The notes beneath the pieces are model-generated. The model saw only the letters and a list, made by a program, of their open reading frames with translations. It did no database searches and was not told the DNA's origin. Below are positions 1-4,833 of a DNA stretch of 47,277 bases, piece by piece. The stretch spans positions 1-47,277 of the forward strand of contig CALVYL010000003.1 in NCBI GenBank assembly GCA_944372215.1. The letters run 5' to 3'. Each line of letters starts with the position of its first letter. The stretch's first letter is position 1. Both the position numbers and the translations under genes were made by a program. The stretch is from an uncultured Bacilli bacterium. GTDB taxonomy: Bacteria; Bacillota_I; Bacilli_A; RF39; UBA660.

Positions 1-95
1 TATCTTACTTTTTCTAAATCAGTTAAATCATCAGGCATAGATGTAGCAATAAAGTTTATTGAAGGTATAATATTTTGACCAACTTTTAAGTTCAT
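1..95 (-). CDS. Partial hypothetical protein (N-terminus only; runs off the window edge)
   Basis: ATG at 95 preceded by GGATGTGA; reads MNLKVGQNIIPSINFIATSMPDDLTDLEKVR; shares its upstream 68-bp element with the next gene. Confidence 0.6.
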   Translation of the reverse strand, partial: MNLKVGQNIIPSINFIATSMPDDLTDLEKVR

Positions 96-114
96 AATTA
101 TCACATCCAATATA

Positions 115-182
115 ATTATACAATATAGTAAAATAAAAAGCTAATATTAGTTATAATTCACATGTGCATTTTTTGCACAAGT
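115..182. repeat. 68-bp direct repeat, copy A (promoter-like part plus TGTGCA-TTTTT-TGCACA palindrome)
   Basis: 57/68 identical to 1337-1404 by manual ungapped alignment. Confidence 0.85.
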
Positions 183-242
183 TCAATATTCTTTTGATTA
201 TAGAGAGCTTCATCAATTTTAATTCTGTGAAAATCCACGGAA

Positions 243-1316
243 TTATAATAATTTGTTAGTTTTACTATTTCTGTATTTGTTATATAAACTATATATATAG
301 TTATAGTAATCCTCTTTATGTGAATTATATGTCCTTAAAATTTTGTTTGCTATATTGTATGCATTTTCAAAATCTTCTTTTGTAATTAGCCCATGTTCAT
401 ATACTTTTTTTAATTCTTCCTCATCCATTATTGTGGGTTCATGACCATTAGGAATACAGACATCTAATTTCATATCAACAAAATATGGATTTTCTGGATT
501 ACTAAAATCATTAGTTCTTGTAATATCAAAATAACTTTCTATTAAATTGTCTTGATCATCAAACATAACAGTTAGCCACCAATTCTCTCCTTTAGGAGCA
601 AATATTAATTGTTTATAATTGTTATCTGCTATAGTAATATTACCAATTGGCGAATCAACTAATAAAGGAGATTCTACTAGTTGCATATTCAAATAACAAA
701 CTTTCCCTTCAAAAAATTCATTCTTTTCATCTTCAATTATAACTTCTTTTTTAATAATTCTTTTCCAGTCGTTTCTTCTTAAATCTCTAAATCCAAAAGT
801 AATACTATTATCTTTTAATTTTATTCTAGTAAGATATTCTTCATCTGTTTCTCCAACTATAAAAGCTTCACAGCTTAATTGAACTTTTAATGAAACAGGA
901 TTATTTTTATGAACAGATAAATATATTTCATCTTCTTTTATTATTTCTTTGCATTTTTCAATTGTTAAAAGAAGTCCTTGTTTAGCATAACCTTTACCTC
1001 TATACTCAGGCAATATTCCATATCCTATATGACCTGCTCCATTTCTTAAGAAGTCATTCAAATAATGTCTTATTTTAAATAATCCAACTATCTCATTATC
1101 ATCCCACAAAAAGAAATAAGTATCTGGAACATATCCATCAGGCAATTCTAAACCTTCTGAATTTTTTAACAATTTAGGAATTACTTGATTTACAAATTCG
1201 TCCTTTGTAACATTATGATATTTATTTTCAAATCCATTTTCTTGGGCTGGTATAGCCTTTATTGCTTTATATTCCTTTTCAAAATCTTCGAGGTTTATCT
1301 TTTTTAAATAAAGCAT
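243..1316 (-). CDS. GNAT acetyltransferase fused to a DUF402-like C-terminal domain
   Basis: N-half has GHIGYGILPEYRGKGYA (GNAT motif A); C-half has YFDI...FVDMKLDV...IMDEEEL typical of DUF402; start placed at ATG 1316 after GGAG. Confidence 0.75.
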   Translation of the reverse strand: MLYLKKINLEDFEKEYKAIKAIPAQENGFENKYHNVTKDEFVNQVIPKLLKNSEGLELPDGYVPDTYFFLWDDNEIVGLFKIRHYLNDFLRNGAGHIGYGILPEYRGKGYAKQGLLLTIEKCKEIIKEDEIYLSVHKNNPVSLKVQLSCEAFIVGETDEEYLTRIKLKDNSITFGFRDLRRNDWKRIIKKEVIIEDEKNEFFEGKVCYLNMQLVESPLLVDSPIGNITIADNNYKQLIFAPKGENWWLTVMFDDQDNLIESYFDITRTNDFSNPENPYFVDMKLDVCIPNGHEPTIMDEEELKKVYEHGLITKEDFENAYNIANKILRTYNSHKEDYYNYIYSLYNKYRNSKTNKLL

Positions 1317-1336
1317 AACTATCAACTCCTATACAC

Positions 1337-1404
1337 ATTATACAATATAGTATAATAAAATGCTAATATTAGTTACAACCCACATGTTCCATTTTGGAAC
1401 ATGT
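1337..1404. repeat. 68-bp direct repeat, copy B (TGTTCC-ATTTT-GGAACA palindrome)
   Basis: 57/68 identical to 115-182; includes extended -10 TGTATAAT on the minus strand. Confidence 0.85.
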
Positions 1405-1444
1405 GATATATGTTTCTGAACATGTTCACTGTTTTTCTTTCACA

Positions 1445-1478
1445 AAAAATATTGACAAATGCTAATGTCAATATTTTT
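1445..1478 (-). terminator. Putative intrinsic terminator downstream of secA
   Basis: AAAAATATTGACA / TGTCAATATTTTT inverted repeat. Confidence 0.55.
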
Positions 1479-1528
1479 AATTTTACTTAGTTTTAATTTG
1501 GTCGAATTCGACTAAATTAAAATTTTAA

Positions 1529-4024
1529 CTATACATTCTTTCCACAACAATTCTTGTATTTTTTTCCTGAGCCGCAGATGCAAGGGTCATTCCTGCCTAT
1601 TTTGGCAGCAACTCTTTTTGGTTGAGCTTTGACCTTTTCTTTACCGTCGTTTGCTTGACCTTGTAAAGTTTGTTTTCTTTCAGTATTTTGTCTTACTTCT
1701 GCTTTAAGTAAGAATGTTGCTATATCATTATCTATCTTATTAAGAAGATTTTCAAACATTTCGTAACCTTCCATAGTATATACTTGAACAGGATTACTTT
1801 GAGCATAACCTCTAAGGCCAACACCTTCTTTTAAGTGTTCCATAGCACTCATGTGTTCTACCCAATTTGAATCAATTACTCTTAAAGATATAGCTTTTTC
1901 AAATTCATTCATTAAAGGTGAAGATATCATTTTCTTTTCATAATCTTTAATTACTAAATCGAAAATATAATCAACTACTTCTTGCTCTTTTAAATTTTCA
2001 ATATCTTTAACATCTAAGTTTTGATTTTTTAAGAAATTTGTATTTACATATTCTACTATTTCTGATAAATCATGTTCTGTTAAATAATTTTCTGGTGGAA
2101 TATGTGATTCTACTAAATTTCTAATAGTATTTCTAAATGTTTCGATTATTTTATCATGAATAGATTCTTCATCTAATATTTCATTCCTTCTAGAATAAAT
2201 TATTTCTCTTTGTTCATTTAAAACATTGTCAAAATCAAGAAGACTTTTACGATAATCATAGTTATTTCCTTCAACTTTCTTTTGAGCAGATTCAATAGAT
2301 TTAGTCAAAGTTTTAGAACGGATTGCTTGAGTTTCTTCAAGGCCTAGACTAGTTAACATGTTTTGAATTCTTTCTGTTCCAAAACGACGCATTAAATCAT
2401 CATCAAATGAAACAAAGAATTGACTAGTTCCTGGATCTCCTTGACGACCTGCTCGACCTCTTAATTGGTTATCAATACGACGAGATTCATGTCTTTCAGT
2501 ACCAATTACATAAAGACCACCAAGTTCACGAACACCTTCACCCAATTTTATATCGGTTCCTCGACCTGCCATGTTAGTTGCTAGAGTAATAGCTCCTTTT
2601 TCCCCAGCATGAGCAATAATTTCCGCTTCGCGTTCGTGGTTTTTAGCATTTAATACCTCATGAGGTAATTTATTTTTAGTTAAAAGTTTACTTAATCTTT
2701 CATTTGATTCAACAGATATAGTACCAATAAGTATTGGTCTACCAATACTATGTATTTCTTTAACACAATTTATTATTGCTTCATATTTTCCTTTTTCAGT
2801 TGGATAAAGTAAATCCGCTAGATCTTCTCTGATTACTGGTTTATTTGTTGGAATTTCTATGACATACATATTATATATATTTCTAAATTCTTCTTCTTCA
2901 GTTTTAGCAGTACCAGTCATACCAGCAAGTTTATTATACATTCTAAATAAATTTTGATAAGTAATTGTGGCCATAGTTTTTGTTTCAGTATTAATTGTTA
3001 CGCCTTCTTTAGCTTCAATTGCTTGATGTAAGCCTTCAGAATATTGTTTTCCGTGCATAAGTCGACCTGTAAATTGATCAACTATTACAATCGTGCCATT
3101 TTCAACGACATAATCAACATCTTTTTTAAAACCATAATTAGCTTTTAGAGCTTGATTAATATGATGAACTAAAACGGTATTATCTAAATCATAAAGATTT
3201 TGGATATTTAGTAATTTTTCCACTTTTTTACTACCATCTTCAGTTAATGATACATTTTTAGTTTTTAGATCAACTGTATAATCAGCGTCTTCTTTAAGTT
3301 TTTTAGCAACTCGATCAGCATCAATATACAAATTATTTGTATTCATCCTGCCACCACTAATTATTAATGGGGTTCTAGCTTCATCAATTAAAATAGAGTC
3401 AACCTCATCGATAATACAAAAGTTTAAGCCTCTTTGAACTCGATTTTCTTTTTTTACAACCATATTATCTCGAAGATAATCAAATCCTATTTCACTATTA
3501 GTTGAATAAGTTATATCAGCATTATAAGCGGCTTGTTTTTCTTTAGTACTTATTGCTCGAAGATTTACACCAACAGAGATACCTAATAACTCATAAATTG
3601 GTCCCATCCATTCGGCATTTCTTTGCGACAAATATTCATTGGTTGTTACAACATGTACACCTTTTCCTTCAAGAGCATTTAGGTAAGCCGGCAAAACGGT
3701 GGTTAAGGTTTTTCCTTCACCGGTTTTCATTTCCGCAATATTACCATAATGAATAGCTAATCCCCCAAGGATTTGCACATGGAATGGCTTTTCCCCAATA
3801 GCTCTATAAGCCGCTTCTCGAGCTACTGCAAAAGCTGGAACTATTATATCTTCTAAAGTTTTTCCTGTTTCCAGTTCGGCCTTAAATTCAATAGTTTTTT
3901 CTTTAAGTTCAGCATCACTTAATTTTTGAATTTCTGGTTCCATTACTTCGATTTTCTCAGCAATTTTTTCAAAACGACTTAATTCTTTATATTCACTATC
4001 TAATAATTTCTTTAAAAATTTCAT
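1529..4024 (-). CDS. secA: Preprotein translocase ATPase SecA
   Basis: MKTGEGKT, DEVDSILIDEARTPLIIS, TNMAGRGTDI, C-terminal GRNDPCICGSGKKYKNCC. Confidence 0.98.
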   Translation of the reverse strand: MKFLKKLLDSEYKELSRFEKIAEKIEVMEPEIQKLSDAELKEKTIEFKAELETGKTLEDIIVPAFAVAREAAYRAIGEKPFHVQILGGLAIHYGNIAEMKTGEGKTLTTVLPAYLNALEGKGVHVVTTNEYLSQRNAEWMGPIYELLGISVGVNLRAISTKEKQAAYNADITYSTNSEIGFDYLRDNMVVKKENRVQRGLNFCIIDEVDSILIDEARTPLIISGGRMNTNNLYIDADRVAKKLKEDADYTVDLKTKNVSLTEDGSKKVEKLLNIQNLYDLDNTVLVHHINQALKANYGFKKDVDYVVENGTIVIVDQFTGRLMHGKQYSEGLHQAIEAKEGVTINTETKTMATITYQNLFRMYNKLAGMTGTAKTEEEEFRNIYNMYVIEIPTNKPVIREDLADLLYPTEKGKYEAIINCVKEIHSIGRPILIGTISVESNERLSKLLTKNKLPHEVLNAKNHEREAEIIAHAGEKGAITLATNMAGRGTDIKLGEGVRELGGLYVIGTERHESRRIDNQLRGRAGRQGDPGTSQFFVSFDDDLMRRFGTERIQNMLTSLGLEETQAIRSKTLTKSIESAQKKVEGNNYDYRKSLLDFDNVLNEQREIIYSRRNEILDEESIHDKIIETFRNTIRNLVESHIPPENYLTEHDLSEIVEYVNTNFLKNQNLDVKDIENLKEQEVVDYIFDLVIKDYEKKMISSPLMNEFEKAISLRVIDSNWVEHMSAMEHLKEGVGLRGYAQSNPVQVYTMEGYEMFENLLNKIDNDIATFLLKAEVRQNTERKQTLQGQANDGKEKVKAQPKRVAAKIGRNDPCICGSGKKYKNCCGKNV

Positions 4025-4110
4025 TTTCCACCTCAACTTAAATTATACCAAAAAAAATAAGAGTTTTAAACTCTTATTATTATTTTCGTTAATTTTTTAA
4101 TGAAATTTAA

Positions 4111-4641
4111 TTATTTTACATTAATTATACCGTAGCTACCATCTTTTCGCTTATATAAAACGGATACACAATCTTCATCAATATTTTTGAAGACAAAGAA
4201 ATCATGGTTTAAAAGTTCAATTTGTAATATTGCTTCTTCTTCATCCATTGGTTTCATATCAATATCTTTTCTTTTAACGATTTTATCTTCAGTTTCATTT
4301 TCGATTGCTTCATAATCAAAATTCATTTCAAATTTTGGTACATCACGGTATTTCTTTTCTAACTTAGCTTTGTTTTTTCTAATTTGACCTTCCAGTTTAT
4401 CAATAACTAAATCTGTTGCCGCATATAAGTCTTGATGTCTTTCTTCTGCTCTTAAAGTAAATTTGCTTGTTGGAACTGTAACCTCAATACTTTGATCTTG
4501 ATTCTTAACTTTTATAAGAACCTTACATTCAATTTCCTTTGGTTTTTCAAAATACTTATCAAGTCTACTTAATTTTTCTGTTATGTATTCTTTAATTGCT
4601 TTGGTAACTGTTATTTTATCACCACGAATACTTATTTTCAA
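4111..4641 (-). CDS. hpf: Long ribosome hibernation promoting factor (HPF/YvyD)
   Basis: DLYAATDLVIDKLEGQIRKNK and KPMDEEEAILQIELLNHDFFVF; upstream of secA as in Bacilli; TTG start. Confidence 0.95.
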   Translation of the reverse strand: MKISIRGDKITVTKAIKEYITEKLSRLDKYFEKPKEIECKVLIKVKNQDQSIEVTVPTSKFTLRAEERHQDLYAATDLVIDKLEGQIRKNKAKLEKKYRDVPKFEMNFDYEAIENETEDKIVKRKDIDMKPMDEEEAILQIELLNHDFFVFKNIDEDCVSVLYKRKDGSYGIINVK

Positions 4642-4833
4642 AATATATCACCTCTATTAATAATATACCATAAATTATGAAAAAAAACTACATATTAGTT
4701 AGAAAAACACATGTGTTATGTACATGTGTAGCCTTCTTCCATACCTCTTTTAACTCACTAAATATTCTTCGCTGTTATATAAAACAGCAAGAAAAAACCA
4801 GAAAACATTTTTTAATCTGGTTTTGGTAATTCA

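Follow-up and report, generated by a model that had tools for sequence, protein, structure and literature searches.

Downstream of secA in the genome of an uncultured gut Bacilli bacterium (genome G000), two unrelated minus-strand genes, a GNAT-DUF402 fusion gene and a gene for a protein of 311 amino acids (aa), are each preceded by a copy of the same palindrome-bearing repeat. Comparisons with related genomes and metagenome contigs make it probable that this locus is a hot spot of gene swapping by homologous recombination anchored on the end of secA, that the repeat is a duplicated module combining a scar with a promoter, and that it is neither a recombinase site nor part of an integron. The anatomy of the locus, the homologies of its parts, a presence/absence difference among relatives and the orphan secA ends found in metagenome loci were established directly and are presented below.

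The window, i.e., the whole stretch of DNA that was analyzed, corresponds to positions 1-47,277 of contig C3 in the G000 assembly (1.01 Mb in 68 contigs, 27% G+C, 73.5% complete). The relatives of G000 are uncultured gut Bacilli, and the public sequencing runs containing the sequence are mostly labelled chicken gut. Comparisons within the genus draw on 56 genomes, 47 of which have a secA match. On the minus strand the gene order is hpf (4111-4641), secA (1529-4036), GNAT-DUF402 (243-1316) and the first 31 codons of the 311-aa gene, which is cut by the end of the contig; the locus thus lies directly downstream of secA, as an earlier reading of the window made from its sequence alone (hereafter the sequence-only reading) had placed it.

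Anatomy of the repeat

A repeat search of the window returned a single direct repeat, 115-197 against 1337-1419 (83 nt, 80% identity, spacing 1222), and the similarity extends over approximately 105 nt when the two copies are aligned through both start codons. In the 68-nt frame reported by the sequence-only reading (115-182 and 1337-1404), 57 of the 68 positions are identical and the two genes behind the element are indeed unrelated, one encoding a GNAT-DUF402 protein and the other a protein with no Pfam match. The inner core (115-153 and 1337-1375) is identical at 37 of 39 positions. The repeat is real and beyond chance. On the plus strand its palindromes read TGTGCA-TTTTT-TGCACA at 163-179 (copy A) and TGTTCC-ATTTT-GGAACA at 1385-1401 (copy B), so that, as had been claimed from the TGTGCA and TGTTCC arms, two positions per arm have changed and both changes are compensated. 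A second palindrome, CTAATATTAG, had been described as invariant; it is present in both copies (141-150 and 1363-1372), but is one base short in the B copy of the related genome G052 and in sequencing run X9 and reads CTAATATGTAG in the hpf promoter. Likewise, only part of the proposed extended -10 stands: the TATAAT hexamer is present, but TGTATAAT lacks the spacer base of the canonical TGnTATAAT, and a promoter scan returned TTAGCA-18-TATAAT (10/12) with no TG ahead of the second hexamer.

Each copy of the repeat is a mosaic of three parts, namely a 36-39-nt relic of a palindrome found in rhuM genes, a short core with CTAATATTAG and a T-run, and a sigma-70-type -10 with a ribosome-binding site. 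The features of the locus are as follows, with the basis of each in brackets.

1-95, minus strand: 5' end (31 codons) of the 311-aa gene, start codon at 95-93, cut by the contig end (translation)
96-200, minus strand: module copy A in front of the 311-aa gene, with rhuM-type hairpin, core, -10 and ribosome-binding site (covariance model, 111.7 bits; repeat; alignment)
115-153, minus strand: core A, holding the -10 (115-120) and CTAATATTAG (141-150) (37/39 against core B; the crossover behind the hybrid copy of G019 and G021 has to fall in it)
163-179, no strand: palindrome A, TGTGCA-5-TGCACA, a weak hairpin (read directly; rhuM matches)
243-1316, minus strand: GNAT-DUF402 fusion gene, 357 aa (Pfam PF00583 and PF04167)
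243-1360, minus strand: unit common to other lineages, the gene with about 43 nt upstream of it including the -10 and ribosome-binding site (blastn against locus L170)
1317-1422, minus strand: module copy B in front of GNAT-DUF402 (covariance model, 127.3 bits; repeat)
1381-1405, no strand: palindrome B with 10-bp arms, CACATGTTCC-5-GGAACATGTG, relic of the rhuM gene neighboring secA (35/39 against rhuM of genome G057)
1428-1494, minus strand: relic of the terminator region that follows GNAT-DUF402 in other lineages, containing a palindrome with 13-bp arms at 1445-1478 (local alignment)
1484-1523, minus strand: palindrome 1491-1522, homologous to a piece of a KilA-N gene in genome G022 (95% over 40 nt)
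1529-4036, minus strand: secA, its 3' part apparently the recombination anchor (open reading frame; mosaic identity; orphan ends)
4643-4745, minus strand: third, diverged relative of the module, a terminator hairpin after a cold-shock protein gene with the hpf promoter (TAACTAATATGTAG) (covariance model, 38.6 bits)

Presence and absence of the GNAT-DUF402 segment

Genomes G019 and G021 lack exactly the 1,222-bp GNAT-DUF402 segment and hold a single, hybrid copy of the repeat, which bears out the proposal that the gene is a discrete unit bounded by repeats. In both genomes, query positions 1-182 and 1314-1600 overlap on one 90-nt element that joins the B hairpin and the core to the ribosome-binding site of A; the G021 copy has an uncompensated change. 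Over the secA-hpf region the two genomes share 92-93% identity with G000. Genome G052, on the other hand, has the same two-copy structure as G000 and a GNAT-DUF402 protein that is 99% identical. Relatives thus differ in whether they have the 1,222-bp segment, and its ends are inside the repeat. Judged by the sole A/B polymorphism of the core in G000, the crossover occurred upstream of that position, within the 14-nt stretch containing CTAATATTAG; the A core of G052 carries the B state, so that this placement is weak evidence.

The module is rare. Across the whole G000 assembly, blastn-short found two copies only (39 nt, 94.9%, E 2e-11); the next-best match (22 nt, E 0.001, contig C4) is a promoter match whose equivalent in G019 (L013) lies upstream of lexA. 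The covariance-model search for more copies that the sequence-only reading had proposed was carried out on all 56 genomes of the genus with a model (R1) built with a 10-bp stem, and yielded six matches of 111-133 bits in four genomes, two each in G000 and G052 and one each in G019 and G021. Weak R1 matches on contig C7 of G052 are the lexA promoter and another ordinary promoter. Among species-representative genomes, a 24-nt core pattern matched G019, G052, G021 and, by chance, one archaeal sequence (L118, inside a gene), and it had no match in metagenome contigs. Dispersed copies outside the locus, of the kind expected for REP- or MITE-like elements (repetitive extragenic palindromic sequences or miniature inverted-repeat transposable elements), were found neither by blastn-short nor by the covariance model. 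The sequence-only reading had set its idea of a mobile cassette against the case of two copies genome-wide in a fixed gene order; the copies do number only two, but gene order in relatives varies.

The same reading had the repeat as the edge of an integron-like array continuing to the left, with a tyrosine recombinase expected nearby. The G052 contig, which reaches 10 kb further, contradicts the array: it has the same two copies followed by ordinary genes, with no further copy of the module in the 10 kb left of the locus or elsewhere in 16 kb of G052. The genes of this left flank encode proteins of 311, 90, 102 (HRDC) and 545 aa, followed by desulfoferrodoxin, prfB, tilS, ftsH and secG. Pfam searches found no recombinase among 10 proteins left of the locus in G052, and tyrosine recombinase genes (PF00589) are absent from both the contig of the window and contig C23 of G052; in G000 the two matching genes are confined to contigs C10 and C1.

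Assembled contigs from four sequencing runs, compared with positions 1-3000 of the window, break at the core. They contain no joint skipping the 1222 and no back-joint, which speaks neither for nor against circles or mixed alleles. One low-depth joint from 104 to 1468 has 21 nt on its shorter side and is not trusted.

Origin of the hairpins in rhuM genes

The next-best matches to the covariance model (36-48 bits) all fall inside RhuM-family genes, where the palindrome encodes T-C-[S/A]-K-[M/I]-[E/A]-H; the link to rhuM that the sequence-only reading had suggested is thus corroborated. Hairpin B with about 12 nt of its left flank matches rhuM of genome G057 at 35 of 39 positions (score 62) and hairpin A with its left flank matches rhuM of genome G063 at 30 of 36 (score 48), against a null of 4000 genome windows with a mean of 15.5, a standard deviation of 2.9 and a maximum of 46. 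Hairpin A also agrees at about 30 of 34 positions with the rhuM gene of metagenome locus L172, which carries a hairpin-A variant 1.4 kb after GNAT-DUF402. G057 keeps an intact rhuM (PF13310) between secA and the 311-aa gene, so that hairpin B is the remainder of that gene. Of the 47 genomes in which secA was matched, 8 have a rhuM gene no more than 2.5 kb downstream of it.

Homology to rhuM is confined to these 36-39 nt. The 66 nt after the hairpin score insignificantly against rhuM (28-32, with 0.05-0.21 of null windows as high) and the 60 nt before it show no significant likeness (null fractions 0.14-0.63). The possibility that the whole module is a rhuM fragment was rejected on the grounds that the hairpin flanks on both sides are not significantly rhuM-like. 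RhuM-family genes are very common in this genus, whose genomes are only about 1 Mb in size: 48 of the 56 genomes have matches, up to seven per genome, some in tandem and many with internal stop codons.

Variation of the palindrome was surveyed in 35 distinct rhuM segments of the genus, with 41-100% protein identity. At one codon position these segments carry perfect stems of 5-14 bp with widely differing arms. The longest perfect stem of the approximately 550-nt rhuM match falls at this site in 25 of the 35 segments, and stems of at least 8 bp occur there in 25/35 and elsewhere in 3/35. In the fixed register, 301 of 490 cells pair, compared to 92-138 of 490 when the partner is slid, and most positions have two to four types of pair. 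Within one genus, the rhuM palindrome covaries deeply at a fixed codon position. Both the TGTGCA and the TGTTCC arms, as well as AAAAT and ATTTT loops, are found in rhuM genes of the genus. Since both variants and both loop orientations occur there, the compensatory changes between A and B are best described as two pre-existing variants of a coding palindrome. The sequence-only reading had taken conserved symmetry with variable sequence as the mark of a structure-recognized site or a recombinase core; the covariation is instead traced to the rhuM family, and the hairpin is missing from the unit found with the gene in other lineages.

Template-switch mutation is described as producing several compensatory changes, or the inversion of a loop, in one step (PMC8794818). 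The rhuM palindromes likewise show multiple compensatory changes together with loop inversion (AAAAT versus ATTTT); that paper treats RNA genes, whereas the rhuM palindrome is coding. Either template switching or a function at the DNA level could keep the palindrome in rhuM, the latter being equally possible. Among the matches listed for rhuM and palindrome in the literature, no title concerns a palindrome in rhuM.

The end of secA as a probable anchor

Identity between G000 and G052 is 98-100% over window positions 1-2400 and 86-91% over 3000-4600. The last 1.2 kb of secA in G000 shows 95-99.7% identity to G052, G019, G021 and G023, while its 5' part and most of hpf show 86-91%; in the 3' part of the gene, G019, G021 and G023 are as close to G000 as G052 is. 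This mosaic points to recombination tracts ending inside secA, to judge from the identity profile, and leaves gain and loss of the GNAT-DUF402 segment undistinguished. Separating gain from loss by phylogeny was given up, as the region is mosaic and the secA-hpf tree is poorly supported (42-60%), with G000 and G052 not paired.

Pieces of other genes lie between secA and hairpin B. Positions 1428-1494, upstream of hairpin B, align with the GNAT-DUF402 terminator of other lineages with a score of 61, compared to a mean of 23.9, a standard deviation of 5.1 and a maximum of 50 in 3000 null windows. The same piece is present in G019 and G021, which are without the gene, and an earlier copy of GNAT-DUF402 may once have stood here. 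The left flank of hairpin A was also considered as a partial copy of this terminator, and this was rejected (score 20, with 85% of null windows as high). Positions 1484-1523 match G022:C1:49075-49114 at 95% identity over 40 nt; in G022 this stretch belongs to the beginning of a truncated KilA-N open reading frame (ORF) located behind secA (L055:588-1133, PF04383). Within 1484-1523, just past the secA stop codon, lies a terminator-like palindrome with 16-bp arms (1491-1522), which is probably another relic of a coding-sequence palindrome. In G023, secA is followed by a gene for an IS605-type TnpB (OrfB; L161 on contig C12, 455-1606) and then by a truncated rhuM.

On the other side of secA, three genomes (G057, G023 and G001; loci L163, L164 and L165) have approximately 1.2-1.4 kb of extra DNA between hpf and secA relative to G000.

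GNAT-DUF402 and the 311-aa gene in other contexts

Only G000 and G052 have a full-length GNAT-DUF402 match among the 56 genomes of the genus, but homologues with 54-92% identity were found in 39 metagenome loci. None of the 39 carries the module according to R1. At the closest of them (L170), 92.6% blastn identity over 1118 nt corresponds to 243-1360 of the window, i.e., the gene with its -10 and ribosome-binding site, and the gene keeps these two signals in three contexts. The claim that the unit carries its own promoter was therefore well founded; the hairpin, in contrast, is not part of what travels with the gene in other lineages.

Twenty-eight of the metagenome loci were inspected, and in 27 of them the gene starts 171-172 nt after a secA end. 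This end is contiguous with a secA frame in 11 loci and is an orphan of 14-57 codons in 16, with other genes lying between the orphan end and the real secA. One locus shows the gene in a third setting, where an orphan secA end lies on its downstream side. On its 3' side, the gene is followed in the metagenome loci by a terminator and then by a broken tyrosine integrase, seen by eye in L174 (3656-4887) and at the equivalent place in most metagenome loci as a gene split into ORFs of 170 and 206 aa. From this split it would appear that an integrated element next to the gene has decayed in that lineage.

Several further observations concern this gene and its surroundings. A contig from run X6 aligns with the start of GNAT-DUF402 and the -10 in front of it and, past 1361, runs on for over 250 nt in unrelated sequence, which hints at yet another context of the gene in a bird-gut sample. 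In L190 (2854-4757), two more acetyltransferase-like ORFs follow an orphan secA end, and by eye the one of 488 aa combines an acetyltransferase with a kinase domain of the aminoglycoside-phosphotransferase type, a possible resistance gene. The weak solved relatives of the GNAT-DUF402 protein are diamine/spermidine N-acetyltransferases and the C-terminal domain of FAU-1. A donor of the fusion gene was sought within the class and rejected: 12 of 400 genomes match at E 1e-25 or better, and apart from G000 itself, the other 11 match only in one half (GNAT or DUF402). For example, an ORF of 346 aa in G381 has no match to the DUF402 half and its C-terminal part is isochorismatase-like by eye.

The 311-aa gene is complete in G052 (L047:9079-10014) and is found at other loci in G009 (L005 on contig C32, 648-1589) and G024 (L006 on contig C42). 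Its protein has no match in Pfam, PADLOC, NCBIfam or PHROGs and no solved relative. In G009 the gene follows an ORF resembling agmatine deiminase by eye, and its upstream sequence GACTAATCATTAGTC-TTTTTATTTTAC resembles the core sequence CTAATATTAGC-TTTTTATTTTAC. Of the neighboring proteins in G052, the 102-aa protein has a DpdF-like HRDC match, and the 90-aa and 545-aa proteins gave nothing convincing in PADLOC, NCBIfam, PHROGs or a solved-structure search; the AraC-type NCBIfam match of the latter (18.8 bits) is far below the cut-off of 208.

Proposed history and alternative explanations

The history we propose would be the following. Lineages would exchange the genes of the locus through homologous recombination of the ordinary kind, for which the conserved 3' end of secA would serve as anchor, and former residents would leave relics behind, namely the KilA-N piece, the GNAT-DUF402 terminator and the rhuM hairpins. 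Recombination between the near-identical 39-nt cores would then add or remove the 1,222-bp GNAT-DUF402 segment, its removal leaving a single hybrid copy such as those of G019 and G021. The core could plausibly have come from a local copy of the hpf promoter region, which lies 3.3 kb away and is the sole relative of the core in the genome: at 4643-4745, this region is the best of 811 upstream regions when compared with cores A and B. We infer homologous rather than site-specific recombination, and likewise the order of these events, from the features described above.

Several points weigh against this history. The core is far more conserved than its flanks (37/39 between A and B, and 39/39 between B of G000 and A of G052), which we attribute to gene conversion or recent recombination, and a recognized site would look alike. 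Two rhuM variants stand at equal distance from the same core, so that two captures or a later conversion are needed, and none of the genomes G000, G052, G019 and G021 was found to have a rhuM of this type that could be the donor. The CTAATATTAG part of the core is absent upstream of the 311-aa gene of G057 and from the traveling gene unit, and the hpf promoter as source of the core barely beats a generic promoter (score 58, with a runner-up at 52). The weakly supported secA-hpf tree does not pair G000 with G052, and with G000 73.5% complete and the window at a contig end, unassembled copies are possible. Because the identity of the cores, the presence of two variants at the same distance and the origin of CTAATATTAG are unexplained by the proposed history, a small probability is kept for a site-specific or an operator role of the repeat.

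A site-specific cassette system, integron-like or other, in which the hairpin and/or CTAATATTAG would be the site of a recombinase encoded elsewhere that moves promoter-carrying circles, would account for a segment bounded by repeats, for a crossover that maps to the CTAATATTAG stretch upstream of the first core polymorphism, for core conservation well above that of the flanks, and for the occurrence of GNAT-DUF402 in at least three contexts with break points near the ends of the gene. We nonetheless consider such a system highly improbable: there is no array, copies numbering only one or two in each genome, neither the contig of the window nor that of G052 encodes a tyrosine recombinase, the module is missing from all 39 other loci of the gene, the hairpins are relics of a coding-sequence palindrome, and CTAATATTAG has lost one base in the B copy of G052. 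Moreover, the tracts of exchange extend into secA and orphan ends of the gene remain, a pattern that marks homologous recombination. Closer to the rhuM origin is the idea that the palindrome functions as a DNA site in its own right and persists after its gene has decayed, either an operator of the RhuM/Bro-N type or a preferred point of breakage and joining. Judged on the sequences compared here, the chance of this is slim; if true, modules of hairpin and core would be portable junctions steering the gain, loss and expression of accessory genes, and the two palindrome variants at equal distance from the core would be accounted for.

Two further explanations concern expression. Selection might keep the two copies similar as a shared operator, with the hairpin and/or TAACTAATAT(T/G)TAG binding one regulator common to three genes (hpf, GNAT-DUF402 and the 311-aa gene), and with the palindrome variants reflecting the tolerance of that regulator. 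Three upstream regions within 5 kb, the third being that of hpf, share a layout up to the start codon. The hpf version is kept in five genomes, with G052, G019, G021 and G023 among them, and a sixth (G024) has it minus the hairpin. The shared block begins roughly 20-35 nt ahead of the -10, covering the -35 region and the bases next to it on the upstream side, a position typical of binding by repressors and some activators. Against this, the motif is not enriched or found upstream of other genes (CTAATATTAG occurs 12 times genome-wide compared to 11.4 expected and AACTAATAT 92 times compared to 82 expected, with the extended context at only three places, the third being upstream of hpf), the 311-aa gene in G057, G009 and G024 and GNAT-DUF402 in the 39 loci are without it, hairpin A is imperfect and the G021 copy has its uncompensated change, and no candidate regulator was found. 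A wider regulon was rejected, given that the short motifs are not enriched and that the weak covariance-model matches are lexA and ordinary promoters; a LexA box was also rejected as the identity of GTTCC...GGAAC, its half-sites being in the wrong order by eye when compared with the upstream region of lexA in L013. A shared operator is thus decidedly unlikely. An insulating role, in which the hairpins are kept as working terminators against read-through from secA, GNAT-DUF402 and the cold-shock protein gene, would explain how they survived the decay of their genes, and each hairpin does lie after a stop codon and before a promoter. The hpf-side hairpin resembles an intrinsic terminator, with a T-run following it; hairpin B folds well (z -3.68), as do two further relic palindromes located on its secA side (z -5.51). 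However, neither A nor B is followed by a T-run on the gene strand, a terminator scan flagged B on the opposite strand only, the fold of hairpin A is no more stable than that of shuffled sequence (z -0.68 over 89 nt), and two hairpins already follow secA before hairpin B is reached. On the present sequence comparisons, such a role would seem unlikely.

The preferred explanation, a secA-anchored hot spot of homologous exchange with a duplicated scar-plus-promoter module, has implications beyond this locus. The repeat looked like a recombinase site or an attC, and its covariation was traced to a palindrome inside a protein-coding gene family. Covariation among two or three intergenic copies is thus weak evidence for a structure-recognized site unless it is known where the palindrome comes from. 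The locus also offers a well-documented hot spot at the 3' end of an essential gene, secA, in gut Bacilli with small genomes, with orphan ends, relic terminators and relic hairpins.

Comparison with known systems

Integron cassettes with attC sites are similar to the GNAT-DUF402 segment in being gene-sized units that are present or absent, with repeats at both borders and a palindrome on the 3' side in which symmetry is conserved and sequence is variable. They differ in that no intI, attI or array is found here, and in that the unit described here has its own promoter, whereas integron cassettes are promoterless and use a common one. The attC architecture consists of R''-L''...L'-R' boxes with a GTTRRRY junction. 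In a comparison by eye with these features, the palindromes here are simple, 17-25 nt long with arms of 6-10 bp, and have no R or L boxes; the adjoining GTTATAA and GTTACAA misfit GTTRRRY. In addition, the repeat here is 83-105 nt long, includes a promoter and a ribosome-binding site, and derives its palindrome from coding sequence.

Repeats of the REP, MITE and Correia types are also short palindromic intergenic elements near promoters and terminators. They occur as many dispersed copies, in contrast to the two copies and one distant relative described here, all of which lie within 5 kb.

In the orphan arrays of Rhs and contact-dependent-inhibition systems, displacement at a conserved anchor gene leaves 3'-end fragments behind. 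The locus described here is similar in that the end of a conserved essential gene, secA, anchors swapping downstream of it, with orphan ends in 16 of 28 loci. It differs in that the window itself is without an orphan secA end, and its scars are instead pieces of displaced accessory genes together with a duplicated promoter module.

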